Virus record (IMG/VR): IMGVR_UViG_3300044959_000131
Coordinates: 1 to 64,000 of that record
Source: a virus
Length of the DNA: 64,000 bases
Direction: 5' to 3' (one strand)
The position numbers and the translations under genes are program-made. Shown one piece after another: positions 8,816 through 28,350 of this stretch. Position 1 is the first letter of the stretch, and every line of letters begins with the position of its first letter. The notes under the pieces were generated by a model, which ran no database searches, was not told where the DNA came from, and worked only from the letters and a program-made list of their open reading frames with translations.

Positions 8816-9865
8816 TTACTCTACATCCATGACACGGCTGTAACCGGTGATTTTTGCGAGCGCAGCCTGCCCTGCCTCTTTGGCAATGTCATCTAAGGCA
8901 TATTTGCCGATGGTCTCAAGTAGTTCCTTGAGGTTCGACATTGCGTTCGGGTTATTGTTGAGCATCGTCGCTGATGCCTCGTAGTCGATTCCGTCTTTGT
9001 CACTCAAGGTGTAGGCATACTTCTCCTTGATGTCGTCCAATGTCTTTTGGACATCGGAGTTTGTGAAGTCGAGTGACTTGAATACTGCAAAGGCGTCGAA
9101 GAGCGGCTTCAAGTTCTTAGGGTTCAACTTGCCCTGTTTTTCGAGCAGCTCTTTAGCGTGCTTTGCAGCCTCACCGAGCGTCTTGTGCATCAGGGCCGCC
9201 GTTTCCGCAACCCACTCTTGAAGATCGGATTGGAGCTTTTTGTGGGCCTCAATGGCTTGGTCGGCGCTTACCTTGGATAGGCTATCCGCCGCCGAGATTT
9301 TGAACATTCGCCACTCAAACCTGAACTTCGACTTCAGCTCGTCGATATCCAAGAACGATTCTTCGTTCTTGAGATACTGCTTCTTTACCCAGGCATCGAT
9401 TTCGTACTTCTTTTCCTTCGTTATTGGATAGGAGTTCTCGATCCTCTTTGCGGCAATCTTATCCACCTGTGCGTTGAGGACCTCAAGCTGAGCTCTCTTG
9501 AGCTCTGGGTAGTTGTCGATGAGGTTCTTTACTTCCTTCAAGAACTCCAACTTTAGGGCCGTCAGCTTTTCCAGCAGGTCTTCCAAGACTGGATATCTAA
9601 CGAATCGCGCCCCAGCAATTGGAAAATCTGAGGAGCGTGAAGCCAAGGTTGACCTTGCCTTGCTTTCGATCTCCTGAATCCTTGAGATAGCGTCCTTCGG
9701 TAGGAGTTTCTTATGTCCCAGCTTGAAGGCTCCTGGATCCAAGTTTGGCAGGTCCAGATCATCGGCATTGAGCTTCTTGATCGCTGCCCACCTACCTACA
9801 TCGAGGTCGAATAGAATTCCTTGTTTGAAGATTACATCCTCAATTCCTTGATTGACGGAACCCAT
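8816..9865 (-). CDS. DUF3150-like protein
   Basis: LDVGRW..KKL..DDL...KLGHKKLLP...IESKARSTL...FPIAGARFV pattern recalled for this family; last gene of the AAA module. Confidence 0.55.
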   Translation of the reverse strand: MGSVNQGIEDVIFKQGILFDLDVGRWAAIKKLNADDLDLPNLDPGAFKLGHKKLLPKDAISRIQEIESKARSTLASRSSDFPIAGARFVRYPVLEDLLEKLTALKLEFLKEVKNLIDNYPELKRAQLEVLNAQVDKIAAKRIENSYPITKEKKYEIDAWVKKQYLKNEESFLDIDELKSKFRFEWRMFKISAADSLSKVSADQAIEAHKKLQSDLQEWVAETAALMHKTLGEAAKHAKELLEKQGKLNPKNLKPLFDAFAVFKSLDFTNSDVQKTLDDIKEKYAYTLSDKDGIDYEASATMLNNNPNAMSNLKELLETIGKYALDDIAKEAGQAALAKITGYSRVMDVE

Positions 9866-24211: not shown

Positions 24212-24526
24212 ATGGCCAGGCAAGAAGTCGTAATGATCAAGTGCGACCGATGCGGGCGGGAGGAGCTCCAGCCTGCGTCCACTCAAGTAGAGAAACTGGC
24301 TCCAGACTTTGAAAGCCAGTTCAAGGGTAATAGGATATGCTATCAGGATGTCTGCAAGCGGTGCGAGGATACAATCAGCTTGGCACTCCAGAGACTAAAA
24401 GAGTGGGATCGTGACCTGAAGTCGTTGATGGGTCCTATCGTCTCGCCAAACGAGGCACCGCCTGTAACTCCTGCTCCAGACTATAGTCCGCCGAAGCCAC
24501 ATTCGGCAGCTTCTATGAAGCGGTAA
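24212..24526 (+). CDS. Zn-finger hypothetical protein
   Basis: KCDRC...VCKRC; GAGGAG SD before ATG 24212. Confidence 0.7.
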   Translation: MARQEVVMIKCDRCGREELQPASTQVEKLAPDFESQFKGNRICYQDVCKRCEDTISLALQRLKEWDRDLKSLMGPIVSPNEAPPVTPAPDYSPPKPHSAASMKR

Positions 24527-24560
24527 TACCCTTTCCGAGAAGTCCCCCACCGGCAAGGGT

Positions 24561-24598
24561 GAGCCGGCCAGGTTGCAGCCTGGCCGGCTCTTCTTTCT
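24561..24598 (+). terminator. intrinsic terminator
   Basis: GAGCCGGCCAGG-TTGCAG-CCTGGCCGGCTC followed by TTCTTTCT. Confidence 0.85.
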
Positions 24599-24661
24599 AT
24601 AAGGCTAAGAAAACCGACGACTATGGGTCGTCTGGCCATCTACTCTCTTATGCCGAAATAA

Positions 24662-27610
24662 CTACCGAATTGGGCAACCGCCTTTGCACTCGTCCTCGAC
24701 CTGTACGACTTCCTTACGACCTGTATAGGCGTCCCACTCTTCCTTGCTTACCTTCTGGTATGGGGCATTCTTTCGGCTCTTCTCCGGGAAGAACGTTGTT
24801 CCTTTGATGAATGGGATGGCCTCGATGAAGAGCCTCTCCATCTCTTCCTCAGAGGGCATCTTGTCCTCTGGCATGTTGATTGTGAAAGAGATAGCGTTGT
24901 CGGCGTAGCATTCCTGTAACATCATCTGCGTGCCCAAGGAGTCTTCGAGGCTGATCTCATCTTGACTCTCGATGAGTTCGTCTGGGTCGAGACCTTTTGA
25001 TCTGAGAATCTCCATTATCGGATCCTCGCACCAGTACTCGACAATCTCGGTATTATTCGCGTCTTCGTCTTTGTATGTCTTGTATCCCTCAATCTTCTTT
25101 ACCTGGAGCTCTGGGTCCGTATCAGCGTATCTGACGAGCCTCTTGAACCTCTTGTAAATGATGGCTTGCCCACTTGCCGATACACCCGGCATGAGGGAAA
25201 TGGTTCCTGTTGGAGCAAGAGCAGTATTCTTTACCGGAGTCGGAATTCCCAACATCTGAGAGTAACGACGTGCCTCGCTTTCTACGACGTTCTTGAAACG
25301 TCGCAGCTCTTGCTTGACGTTTTCATTCTTCCAGGCAGATGAATACTTTTCTTGGAATCGAAGAGCGAGCCATCCATGGTATCCTAAGAATCCGACTCCG
25401 ATTCTGCGGTTCCTTGATACGACCTCCCGCTGGCGAGGTTGTGGAATGTCGCCGTATGTGGCTCTGATGAGCCATCTTGTCATCAACCTGAATGCTTCCT
25501 CTGCATCAGCTTGAGGTCGGTTCGCGAAATACTGCAGGTTGACGTGTCCCAAGTTGCAGTTGCAAGTCAAGACACCTGCGGCAAGTGTGAACCTCTCGAC
25601 ACCTGGAACCGTCACGCAGTAGACCGGCACCTTCTCTTCAAGAGGTTCGATGGACACCACCTGCCACGCGAGTCCGTCTGTATCGGGGCGGCAGAGAGTG
25701 AAGAACATAAGAGGGTTCTTCCTCTTTCCGTAGTTAGTCTCGGTTGTGCCACTATCTTTCGCGGCCCTGAGAACCCAACCCGCTGCGGCTGCATTCTCCC
25801 TCAACCATGTCTCAGCTTGTGGGTGCGAGGATCCGAGGTGTAGGGTCCCATTTTCCTTTTCAGTGGCGTCTGCCATTCCCCAACCAGTGATGAAGCCCGA
25901 GAGGTAGTCTGAACCTTCAGAACCGTCTGGAAACTCTTTGAGGTTCTTCTCGGACTTCAACCACGCCTCAGGAGCCCCGTCGCACGACTGTGGGTAGGTG
26001 AGATGGTCGAAGAACTTGGCCATCTCTTCAGCTTTGTCTCCAAAGAGGCGAATGCGGTGACGCCACGCACCGTCGGCATACTGCCTATCTGCAGAGCCGT
26101 CTCCGAAGATGATGCCGTGTTGAACTCCTTTCTTATAGTCCTCGTTCTTTTCGAACGGGGCAGCGCTCATTGGGATGACGTCACCAACATGGAGAGAGTC
26201 TGTGACAGTACCGTCGATCCTCTCCCAGCGATGATTTGGGGTCACAACGATGTCGACGCGATAGTTGCTCCTCGTTTTCTGATAGCCCTCAGAACCGGTG
26301 TTCCGACGTACTGGGGCGAGTACGACGCGCTGAACGATTTGCTCACCGAATTGCCTGACGACACCAGGCTTCCAGCCCTGCGGTGTTGGTACGGTTACTG
26401 TCTGCCCAACTACGTCGATGAAGCGAACAGCTCCGTACTCTTTCGTTATGAATTTAACGTCACCAGCAAAGCAATTTTCCCACATCTGCAATCCGATTTC
26501 ACCGCACGGATTTGGGCAGAACATCTTCTCTGGCTCTCGCTCCCCTTTCATTGCGAGGCTTCGATTCCAGAGTCCTGGCTCTCCATTCAATCTCTTACCA
26601 AGGATGACTGCTCGAGCCACTTCCTTGGCATGTTTGTCTCCAATCTTGTAGGCCTCGATGAACTCGTCATCGACTTCAACAGAGATGTTCGTACTCCAAT
26701 GCAGTCCATCTGTTCTCTTGCAGTTAATGAACTCGAAGATGTCACTGTCCTTCCAGTTCTTGACAGACATCCTAGACGAACGACGCTTTCCACCTGAAAT
26801 GACACAAGAGGCGAGAATATGGTCCATCATCATTGCGTCGAGAGATGTCAGTCTACGTCCGTGGCAAGAGTTTAACTGCTTGCATACGTCGTGAAGCATC
26901 AAGACGAGAGGACCTGGTCCGCACGAGATTCCGCCAGAAGTTTTTAGAGGAAGGCCACGTGCTCTGATCTTCGACACGTCTATGACGAGCGTGGCCTCCT
27001 CACCTGACGATCGGTCCCATGCGGTCTTGAGCAAGAAATCGATCGCTTCGCACCATCCTTCTCGACTGTCTTCAACGACAAGTCTACTTGCCCTAGAGAG
27101 ACCGTTGTGGTCTGAGATCAGATGGAAGAAGTCCGAGTAGTTTGGGTGGTCTTTTCGGCAGGTGATGTGGAGATCAATTCGGCGGGCGATTGGAGGTAGC
27201 TGCTCCAGATAACGATTCGAGTAGTTCGAACCAACACCTCCTCCCTGCATCAGTTCATCAAATAGGAAAGTGAAGTGGTCTTCCGGCCTCTCTGGATCCC
27301 AGCCCGATGCGTTGCAGTTGAACAGGAACTGACGACCTTTCACACCTGAGGCGTAGAGATGGCGGCCTGCTGGGATAATCCCAAACTCCAGCATCAAGTT
27401 AATTAGCTTCCCTCGTTCATCCGGTTCGATGAAGGAGGAATCTACGAGTGATAGGTTTCCATCGACGGCCCTGATGACAGTTTCTTGATAAGTCTCGTTC
27501 TCGCCGTTCGATTTAGTCCGACTGTAGGAGCGTTTGTATACCTGTTCTCCGATAGGTCCCCACTTCACTCTGTAGTTCTTGATGTTCTCTGGGATTTTGC
27601 TTTCGATCAT
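24662..27610 (-). CDS. nrdJ: class II (AdoCbl-dependent) ribonucleotide reductase, RTPR/NrdJ type, intein-containing
   Basis: PAGR, FNC, NPCGEI, CNL (after the intein), APTGTIS, C-terminal CKGGCPIR redox pair. Confidence 0.92.
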   Translation of the reverse strand: MIESKIPENIKNYRVKWGPIGEQVYKRSYSRTKSNGENETYQETVIRAVDGNLSLVDSSFIEPDERGKLINLMLEFGIIPAGRHLYASGVKGRQFLFNCNASGWDPERPEDHFTFLFDELMQGGGVGSNYSNRYLEQLPPIARRIDLHITCRKDHPNYSDFFHLISDHNGLSRASRLVVEDSREGWCEAIDFLLKTAWDRSSGEEATLVIDVSKIRARGLPLKTSGGISCGPGPLVLMLHDVCKQLNSCHGRRLTSLDAMMMDHILASCVISGGKRRSSRMSVKNWKDSDIFEFINCKRTDGLHWSTNISVEVDDEFIEAYKIGDKHAKEVARAVILGKRLNGEPGLWNRSLAMKGEREPEKMFCPNPCGEIGLQMWENCFAGDVKFITKEYGAVRFIDVVGQTVTVPTPQGWKPGVVRQFGEQIVQRVVLAPVRRNTGSEGYQKTRSNYRVDIVVTPNHRWERIDGTVTDSLHVGDVIPMSAAPFEKNEDYKKGVQHGIIFGDGSADRQYADGAWRHRIRLFGDKAEEMAKFFDHLTYPQSCDGAPEAWLKSEKNLKEFPDGSEGSDYLSGFITGWGMADATEKENGTLHLGSSHPQAETWLRENAAAAGWVLRAAKDSGTTETNYGKRKNPLMFFTLCRPDTDGLAWQVVSIEPLEEKVPVYCVTVPGVERFTLAAGVLTCNCNLGHVNLQYFANRPQADAEEAFRLMTRWLIRATYGDIPQPRQREVVSRNRRIGVGFLGYHGWLALRFQEKYSSAWKNENVKQELRRFKNVVESEARRYSQMLGIPTPVKNTALAPTGTISLMPGVSASGQAIIYKRFKRLVRYADTDPELQVKKIEGYKTYKDEDANNTEIVEYWCEDPIMEILRSKGLDPDELIESQDEISLEDSLGTQMMLQECYADNAISFTINMPEDKMPSEEEMERLFIEAIPFIKGTTFFPEKSRKNAPYQKVSKEEWDAYTGRKEVVQVEDECKGGCPIR
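25559..26473 (-). mobile_element. intein (305 aa) with LAGLIDADG-type homing endonuclease in nrdJ
   Basis: WEN|CFAGD...VTPNHRW...GIIFGDGS...GFITGWGMAD...VYCVTVP...GVLTCN|CNL. Confidence 0.92.
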
Positions 27611-27810
27611 TTGCGGCTCCTTGAGAAAAGAGGACCCCCCAGCCGTGTGTTGGTCACACGTTGTCGGAGAGTCCTATGTGGGTGAGTTGACTAAGACCAG
27701 GAGGAACCTGGATTTGTCGAACGGCACGATGAAGTCCCCATTCACCAGTCACGCCTTGCAGAGCGTGGCCGTTCGAGACTTATACGACCGACCCTAGAAG
27801 CTTGGCAACA
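27611..27810 (-). promoter_or_regulatory. structured 5' leader of nrdJ: promoter, three-way junction, terminator-like hairpin, SD
   Basis: TTGCCA-18-TATAAG; P1 27768-27776/27717-27725; hairpin 27632-27674 plus CTTTTCT; AAGGAG. Confidence 0.55.
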
Positions 27811-27863
27811 GAATCGTGATTCCCTTACTGTTTCTGAGGGTTACGCGAATGAAGTCCATAGAG

Positions 27864-27912
27864 CAAGGGAAGCTGTCAGATGGCTAAGTCCGCCACCTGA
27901 CAGCTTCCCTTG
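27864..27912. terminator. long hairpin (16 bp + 4 bp) downstream of 27922-28350
   Basis: CAAGGGAAGCTGTCAG...CTGACAGCTTCCCTTG; no U-tract. Confidence 0.55.
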
Positions 27913-27921
27913 TACCGTCAT

Positions 27922-28350
27922 CTACGCAGTTTTTGACGAGATGGCCTCCATGAACAGTTCATCGTTGAATCGGGCTTCGCTTATCTCGATGAACCGATTG
28001 AAGTTCACCGGTACGACAGCCTCTCCCGATTCGACGGACTCGATCGCCTTCGAGAGAAAGAAGGCTTCCTCGTCCGTCAGAATGAGCTTCTTGCCCCTCA
28101 AAAACTGCAACCGTGGGTGAGAATAGTCGTCTGAGAATTCGATGAGGTGGAAAGTTTGGTTGCCAATCGACATTTCTTCGATGTTTCTAACTATGTCGAA
28201 TCCTAGACGAGCAATTCTTCGAAGATTCTCGTTTTCGCTCTTCTCTTTCAGCAGAAGAGCTCCAGTAGACAGGCTCAAGACCTTCGGGGTCTGACGAACT
28301 ACCCAAGAGGCCGCGTACATGAATCCAAGAGCCATCAAACCTGCTACCAT
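27922..28350 (-). CDS. hypothetical protein with N-terminal hydrophobic helix
   Basis: GGAGG SD; MVAGLMALGFMYAASWVV. Confidence 0.7.
   Translation of the reverse strand: MVAGLMALGFMYAASWVVRQTPKVLSLSTGALLLKEKSENENLRRIARLGFDIVRNIEEMSIGNQTFHLIEFSDDYSHPRLQFLRGKKLILTDEEAFFLSKAIESVESGEAVVPVNFNRFIEISEARFNDELFMEAISSKTA

Follow-up and report, generated by a model that had tools for sequence, protein, structure and literature searches.

The leader of the class II ribonucleotide reductase gene nrdJ is a conserved, structured RNA element, situated between a promoter and the gene and absent from the catalogue of known RNA families; its unusual feature is that two copies of it bracket the nrdJ operon. Because it is a conserved, structured cis-element with a terminator just in front of the Shine-Dalgarno (SD) sequence, the leader is very probably regulatory. 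With respect to its mode of action we favour, at a probability of roughly 40%, a reading in which the leader carries a recognition module of the nut/put type for a trans-acting factor or for RNA polymerase, which governs read-through of the leader terminator.

The window, i.e. the whole stretch of DNA that was analysed, comprises the first 64 kb of an IMG/VR virus record of 176,945 bp. Metagenomes of hot springs and microbial mats contain DNA of this phage (public DNA runs; there is no RNA run among them). On the minus strand, nrdJ occupies positions 24662..27610; its product of 982 aa matches the Pfam families RNR_Alpha, RNR-II_ins_dom, and Ribonuc_red_lgC, and the nearest NrdJ proteins of cultured phages, about 50% identical, are those of actinophages. 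For the comparison of leaders, NrdJ searches of IMG/VR, JGI metagenomes, and a large protein collection were used, which gave 21 distinct leaders. These belong to contigs of uncultured large phages (100-209 kb) with an NrdJ 56-91% identical to that of the window. The NrdJ of the window contains an intein-like insert of 305 aa (CFAGD...VLTCN; 25559-26473, minus strand), placed exactly between QMWEN and CNLGH of a conserved stretch; most NrdJ proteins of the relatives (677-700 aa) are devoid of it, and some carry inserts matching intein or LAGLIDADG families of Pfam.

The gene order around the leader is constant: a gene of ~1150 aa on the other strand, a gene of 140-190 aa, the leader, and nrdJ are followed by zero to eight small co-directional genes, two small convergent genes, and a DNA ligase gene. 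In the window, the gene preceding the leader encodes 142 aa on the minus strand and ends at 27922, leaving a gap of 311 nt to nrdJ. Directly after it, a very strong hairpin with a stem of 16 bp is found (27863-27912, minus strand), which has equivalents in all relatives and is probably the terminator of the 142-aa gene. The upstream protein of 140-190 aa possesses an N-terminal hydrophobic segment, is poorly conserved, and resembles a membrane protein; the neighbouring genes gave no match in Pfam or PHROG.

A sigma70-like promoter at 27779..27808 (minus strand) consists of the -35 element TTGCCA (27808-27803), a spacer of 18 nt, and the -10 element TATAAG (27784-27779). It is missing from the output of our consensus promoter scan, because the rule of the scan demands a T at position 6 of the -10 element. 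The leaders of the relatives contain a promoter of the form TTGnCA-17/18-TAnAAC/G at the same distance as in the window. Transcription is predicted to start ~6-8 nt past the -10 element, that is at 27773-27771 (minus strand), so that the RNA would begin only a few bases before the first hairpin. Between the -10 element and this hairpin, a semi-conserved string CGAAC (or GGAC/AGAC) is located at 27771-27775 (minus strand) and also occurs in the class-2 leaders described at the end; it may be a discriminator or start-site element, not part of an RNA structure.

Folding of the whole leader (176 nt) gave a z-score of -2.36 relative to shuffled sequences (ViennaRNA), and the centroid structure contains a three-way junction of helices P1, P2, and P3, a further hairpin P4, and a terminator. 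Applied to six close relatives, RNAalifold independently returned the core of P1, P2, P3, and the terminator. According to sequence and folds, P1 closes the junction by pairing 27776-27768 (TCGAACGGC) with 27725-27717 (GCCGTTCGA) on the minus strand; its outer 3-4 bp lie upstream of the predicted start, and the transcribed P1 probably comprises about 5-6 bp. Hairpin 1 (P2; 27750..27767, minus strand) has a stem of 6 bp formed by CACGC(T) (27767-27762) and (G)GCGTG (27755-27750) and exposes the loop CTGCAA (27761-27756). In hairpin 2 (P3; 27728..27746, minus strand), GGTGAA (27746-27741) and TTCATC (27733-27728), which include one G-U pair, enclose the loop TGGGGAC (27740-27734). The conserved tetranucleotide GUG(C/G) follows immediately 3' of hairpin 2 (27724..27727, minus strand) and, by inspection of the sequences, is able to pair in several relatives with a CAC that lies at the base of hairpin 1 on its 5' side. 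P4 (CCAGG-UUCCU-CCUGG; 27697..27711, minus strand) is conserved in position, not in sequence.

Behind P4, a C/A-rich and G-poor spacer (27676..27696, minus strand) contains CACCCACA; C-rich spacers exist in all relatives, and a rut site or a source of anti-SD sequence is a possible function. The leader ends with an intrinsic terminator (27624..27675, minus strand), a compound GC-rich hairpin (27675-27631) followed by the U tract CUUUUCU (27630-27624), and with the SD sequence AAGGAG (27617-27622) and the ATG of nrdJ (27608-27610), both on the minus strand. The promoter-like motif, the CCAGG/CCTGG hairpin, the GC-rich hairpin with its CTTTTCT tract, AAGGAG, and ATG had all been named in a first-pass annotation of this DNA and were found where it had placed them; P4 is part of the centroid fold, and promoter and terminator have equivalents in the relatives. 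The three-way junction that the annotation had also drawn is present in the sequence, the centroid structure, and the closest relatives, but its P1 is not conserved beyond the closest subgroup.

The same layout is shared by 19 of the 21 leaders: a promoter, hairpin 1 with CUGCAA, hairpin 2 with RGGGAC, GUG(C/G), a hairpin of free sequence, a C-rich and G-poor spacer, a terminator (canonical in about 13 of 18 cases), the SD sequence, and nrdJ. Among these 19, the loop of hairpin 1, whose length ranges from 6 to 10 nt, reads CUGCAA except for one UUGCAG and one CCGCAA. Its stem occurs in more than 14 unrelated sequences, every one of them complementary. In a gap-free alignment of 24 copies, compensatory changes were observed at all six pairs, with 34 doubly changed cells (13.4 +/- 3.1 in shuffles); the covariation score was 0.618 as opposed to 0.204 +/- 0.045 for shuffled alignments (0 of 500 reached it) and collapsed when the partners were slid against each other. 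Likewise, RGGGAC is contained in the loop of hairpin 2 (6-15 nt) in every class-1 copy, while its stem varies by subgroup (CGUGG/CUACG, GGCG/CGCC, CGUCG/CGACG, and CUCG/CGAG are examples), and both P2 and P3 are supported by consistent or compensatory changes among the six closest relatives. The 5' copies of the closest subgroup, and 12 of 13 copies at the 3' end of the operon, have an unambiguous hairpin 2. Neither hairpin 2 nor the 3' copies could be aligned by MAFFT from one subgroup to another; in the remaining 5' copies, hairpin 2 was therefore assigned by hand and by single-sequence folds and is less certain there. Terminal loops that are invariant on stems that covary freely constitute the pattern of elements which are read from outside.

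P1 and the junction behave differently from the hairpins in the alignment of related leaders that the first-pass annotation had called for: P2 covaries strongly and the layout is widely shared, whereas P1 and the junction are kept in the closest subgroup only. Even there, just the inner pairs CGGC/GCCG are constant, and L003, L008, and L056 carry disrupted or re-formed outer pairs; in the other subgroups an equivalent of P1 is absent or reduced to a short CAC/GUG or GAAC/GUUC helix. The complete junction P1-P2-P3 exists in the window and its five closest relatives and is missing from the 3' copies. In the window it leaves five bases unpaired (J1/2 0 nt, J2/3 ACU, J3/1 GU), which show no conservation between subgroups. 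The invariant bases reside in the terminal loops of P2 and P3, which speaks against the junction as a ligand pocket. A frame of 16 codons starts with an AUG in the P3 loop of the window; this AUG is absent in L003 and L008, and no conserved short ORF, as expected for a leader-peptide attenuator, was found among the leaders compared.

The conservation of the terminator is evident from several features. A hairpin plus UUUUGUCU(C) stands immediately 5' of the SD sequence in about 13 of 18 relatives, the U-tract consensus UUUUGUCUC runs into the SD sequence, and the outer stem contains five compensatory pairs in the six closest relatives (RNAalifold); in about 5 of 18 leaders a canonical U tract is missing. 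The terminator is separate from hairpin 2 and sits 45-70 nt beyond the two-hairpin module. No conserved pairing between module and terminator, i.e. no antiterminator, was found in the leaders: duplex energies were overall no better than those of shuffled sequences (z about 0), and an antiterminator built from the hairpin-2 region and the 5' arm of the terminator was rejected, its energies matching those of the shuffles. The lack of such a pairing fits a processive, not a structural, antitermination. In two relatives, L003 (2900-2990) and L008 (2880-2970), the sequence GGGACA in the loop of hairpin 2 is the complement of UGUCCC, the apical loop of the terminator, so that a loop-loop contact is possible in these two only.

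The second copy of the module is located behind nrdJ, downstream of the gene's own small terminator (GACGAC-CCAUA-GUCGUC followed by GGUUUUCUU; 24616..24632, minus strand). Its hairpin 1 (24561..24590, minus strand) has a GC-rich stem of 12 bp and the loop CUGCAA (24573-24578); its hairpin 2 (24528..24560, minus strand), with the stem CCCUU-G-CCG / CGG-A-AAGGG and GGGGAC (24542-24547) in the loop, abuts the stop codon (24524-24526) of a convergent Zn-ribbon gene (24233-24526, plus strand) that encodes about 100 aa with CxxC...CxxC and a proline-rich tail. On the plus strand, this hairpin 1 doubles as the terminator of the convergent gene, beside which lies a conserved gene of 71 aa. The 177-kb genome has 33 strong hairpins, and no other among them carries a CUGCAA loop. 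The 3' copy of the window possesses neither P1 nor an expression platform, and no recognisable promoter was detected in front of it by the consensus promoter scan. Weak matches behind nrdJ in other phages, obtained with the covariance model R1, had given the first sign of the 3' hairpins; derived from the six closest leaders, R1 is bound too tightly to their sequence and recovered only its own subgroup, even with the filters switched off.

At 15 loci the tandem pair forms the end of the nrdJ operon, always in the orientation of nrdJ; it invariably has the last co-directional gene on one side and, on the other, the conserved convergent Zn-ribbon gene, whose stop codon abuts the module in every relative. 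Five whole phage records contain exactly two modules each, the copies being 2.7-6.4 kb apart around nrdJ and the genes that follow it. Within one genome the two copies have unrelated stems (6 and 12 bp in the window; the stem of the 3' copy has 12-14 bp). In L058, CUGCAA is replaced by CCGCAA in both copies, although the stems are unrelated; this concerted change supports a partner common to both. A complete copy at a place where there is nothing to switch is, again, a property of a site read from outside. The G-U pairs of the leader hairpins, and of the 3' copies of L003 and L049, fall on the sense strand of nrdJ and thus favour RNA as the form in which the module would act. The gene content of the bracketed operon varies: L100 has a MazG-like pyrophosphatase (9125-9463) and L101 a stand-alone response-regulator receiver domain (9148-9513), and the genes of the other loci are without family match.

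The distribution of the motif is narrow. It is absent at 31 viral loci with a more distant nrdJ (<= 50% identity) and at 16 bacterial or MAG nrdJ loci (42-53% identity); among the loci searched, it does not occur outside a single phage clade and a single operon. A comparison of the leader with cultured phage genomes by blastn gave no match. When the window was scanned with Rfam 15, only 13 tRNAs were reported; for the region 27500-28000 there were, at E <= 10, two matches at chance level (mir-745 and TMV_UPD-PK3), and the 17 related loci that were scanned gave none. The Rfam scan suggested by the first-pass annotation thus assigned no RNA family to the leader; RF00167, 2'-dG-II, and RF00174/RF01689 were among the families without a match, and the annotation had remarked that the junction sequences do not match the purine or cobalamin cores.

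Several specific identities were considered and rejected. There is no Rfam match to the T-box (RF00230) or to a cobalamin riboswitch, and the B12-box string was not seen in the leaders. A mimic of the tRNA-Cys anticodon loop or a T-box specifier (UGC-A) does not agree with a loop of 6 to 10 nt and the missing T-box match. Kissing of the two copies' loops via UGCA-UGCA, which would circularise the message from 5' to 3' end, is argued against by L058, where CCGCAA in both copies destroys the palindrome. A search for a complementary trans RNA (UUGCAG plus GUCCC) gave no candidate; the ncRNA of the tRNA operon is without both strings. As defining features of the put, nut, ANTAR, purine, and cobalamin families were looked for and not found, the motif appears to lie outside all of them. 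It is new as a motif and absent from Rfam, and its way of working would correspond to a known kind, that of leaders controlling a terminator.

Which known systems come closest is best seen by comparison. The put RNAs of phage HK022 (putL and putR) are about 70 nt long, form two stem-loops, and occur as two similar copies per genome that each follow an early promoter, one of them just behind PL; put RNA binds the zinc-binding domain of the RNA polymerase subunit beta' and suppresses termination without protein factors (PMC9378689). In lambdoid phages generally, the order is promoter, nut/put, terminator, genes (PMC9378689; PMC11658703), and in the nut/N systems of lambda and P22 the loop of a promoter-proximal RNA hairpin is read by a phage protein, whereupon downstream terminators are passed (PMC11658703). 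The nrdJ module resembles put in its size of about 50-70 nt, in its two adjacent stem-loops a few nt past the predicted start of an early promoter, and in its two copies per genome (in five records), one of which lies behind a sigma70 promoter and upstream of a terminator. It differs in that there is no sequence likeness, that loops instead of stems are conserved, and that the second copy is found where the operon ends instead of behind another early promoter; an action on RNA polymerase is, for the nrdJ module, a proposal by analogy.

A nut site comprises boxA and, beside it, boxB with a stem of 5 bp and a GNRA-like pentaloop, and is present in two copies per genome. A promoter-proximal hairpin, two copies per genome, and a terminator downstream are common to nut and to the nrdJ module, whereas the latter has two hairpins with the hexaloop CUGCAA and with GGGGAC. 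A conserved boxA beside hairpin 1 was not found across subgroups, the string CGCUCU being limited to the closest one, and the neighbouring genes contain no N-like gene according to Pfam and PHROG. ANTAR targets (EutV, NasR/AmiR) also consist of two small tandem hairpins in front of a terminator. Their hexaloops have A as the first and G as the fourth base, the protein that reads them prevents termination, and their second hairpin overlaps the terminator; here, by contrast, the loop is CUGCAA, the hairpin 2 loops have 6-15 nt, and the terminator lies well apart. Iron-responsive elements of eukaryotes combine an invariant hexaloop with a free stem, occur at 5' or 3' ends of mRNAs, and have one protein reader. 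The likeness is one of logic only: the loop differs, and we claim no shared ancestry.

Invariant loops, a junction and a P1 that are not conserved, the lack of a pairing that links module and terminator, the second copy, and the nut/put-like order are the reasons why we favour a recognition module. According to this reading, the leader would be the 5' copy of the two-hairpin module, transcribed from an early promoter of the host type, and the intrinsic terminator downstream would block the entry of the polymerase into nrdJ. The exposed loops would be bound by a macromolecule acting in trans, either a phage or host protein, as in the nut/N system, or RNA polymerase itself, as with put. The complex would enable the polymerase to pass the leader terminator, and nrdJ together with its operon would be made only if the partner is available. 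The same partner may read the 3' copy, for example by re-arming the polymerase or by defining or protecting the 3' end. Judged from its sequence, the convergent Zn-ribbon protein is a candidate for an RNA-binding partner. Several observations argue against a recognition module: the neighbouring genes, as possible sources of a partner, matched nothing in Pfam or PHROG, and the product of the conserved gene upstream resembles a membrane protein; the 3' copy follows the terminator of nrdJ without a recognisable promoter, unlike putR or nutR; the stems of the two copies are very different, unlike those of nut or put pairs; the terminator is a predicted one, and about 5 of 18 leaders do not have the canonical U tract; the concerted loop change concerns a single lineage; and the module has no sequence similarity to put or nut.

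The most obvious competitor is a metabolite riboswitch, in which P1-P2-P3 would form an aptamer with docking loops, and the terminator would respond to the binding of AdoCbl, a dNTP/NTP, or a deoxynucleoside. The aptamer-like fold in front of a terminator, an SD sequence, and a metabolic gene is what one would expect, folding predicts the three-way junction for the window and its closest relatives, several other subgroups allow a closing helix similar to P1 (CAC/GUG or GAAC/GUUC), and a motif outside Rfam could be a new class. The purine and 2'-dG riboswitches upstream of RNR genes indeed have a three-way junction, two hairpin loops, and a terminator in the same position. Compared with these, however, there is no Rfam match at E <= 10, neither P1 nor the junctions, which are too short, are conserved, and there is an extra copy without an expression platform. 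An aptamer for a metabolite would be expected to keep its junction and P1 and to have mutually exclusive helices; the opposite was seen, namely five variable junction bases with the conserved ones in terminal loops, a P1 lying partly upstream of the likely start, no exclusive antiterminator, and a 3' copy without P1 or platform, which together indicate a site read from outside. The limitation to one phage clade and one operon is a further argument against a riboswitch, and we regard it as rather unlikely; if the leader did bind a metabolite, it would represent a new riboswitch class for nucleotide or B12 metabolism. With respect to the first-pass annotation, which had proposed a new ligand- or protein-responsive cis-regulator, it follows that a new, conserved, structured element with a terminator before the SD sequence is retained, the reading of its junction as a ligand pocket is not supported, and a response to protein appears, from the sequences, to fit the evidence better than a response to a ligand.

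The remaining alternatives do without a switch. The module might protect both ends of the operon transcript, the 5'-terminal hairpin against 5'-end-dependent decay and the 3' hairpins against exonucleases, or might provide processing sites for a loop-specific RNase or binding protein. This would agree with a hairpin 1 that begins within a few bases of the predicted 5' end, with the 12-14-bp stem of a 3' copy lying beyond nrdJ's own terminator, and with identical loops at both ends, which recall the logic of iron-responsive elements; but a conserved terminator with U tract between module and SD sequence would remain unexplained, and simple stabilising hairpins need no invariant loops. We consider end elements unlikely. 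It is quite improbable that promoter, module, and terminator, a complete unit without a conserved ORF, make a stand-alone trans-acting RNA of about 150 nt, with nrdJ expressed by leakage or from elsewhere. Lambda makes a short PR'-tR' transcript, which would be an analogous case; against this stand the U tract abutting the SD sequence with no other nrdJ promoter in between, the 3' copy without promoter, and the position relative to nrdJ, which is fixed in all relatives. Finally, the inverted repeats might act as DNA, i.e. as sites for a structure-specific recombinase, a nickase, or a hairpin-promoter polymerase, with the nrdJ operon as a cassette. Direct copies flanking a variable gene block, with conserved "loops" and variable arms, are reminiscent of attC sites or hairpin origins, but the synteny around the block is constant in all relatives and gives no sign of mobility, the G-U pairs on the sense strand favour RNA, and the 5' copy is located exactly behind a promoter; we hardly expect this explanation to be correct.

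Returning to the recognition module, its significance lies in the gene that it precedes, as ribonucleotide reductase sets the dNTP supply for the replication of phage DNA, and in the testable determinants of the motif, which are its two invariant loops, the free sequence of its stems, and the terminator behind it. With a protein or RNA polymerase as its partner, the module would be a new processive antitermination signal, unrelated in sequence to the very short list of known ones (nut, put, EAR, conAn2, canT, and LoaP leaders), and would constitute a compact and portable read-through switch. A more far-reaching version, which is conceivable although we rather doubt it, is that one dedicated factor reads CUGCAA and GGGGAC at both ends of the nrdJ unit and couples antitermination in the leader with formation of the 3' end or with a 5'-3' bridging of the mRNA. 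Were this true, it would be a new system of processive antitermination or of mRNP formation without sequence relationship to the nut, put, EAR, and LoaP leaders.

The two leaders that do not belong to the 19 described above, L061 (1040-1200) and L102 (6840-7000), have a similar layout with other loops, CUUGCG/CUUGAG and GAGGUY, and may represent a second specificity class. In 12 of 18 leaders (L004, L006, L007, L057, L100, L102, and L103 are examples), the upstream terminator is followed by the string CTTAGC (CTTAAC/TTTAGC), about 40-60 nt 5' of the -35 element; in the window, a string of this type also follows the terminator of nrdJ itself (24600-24606, minus strand).
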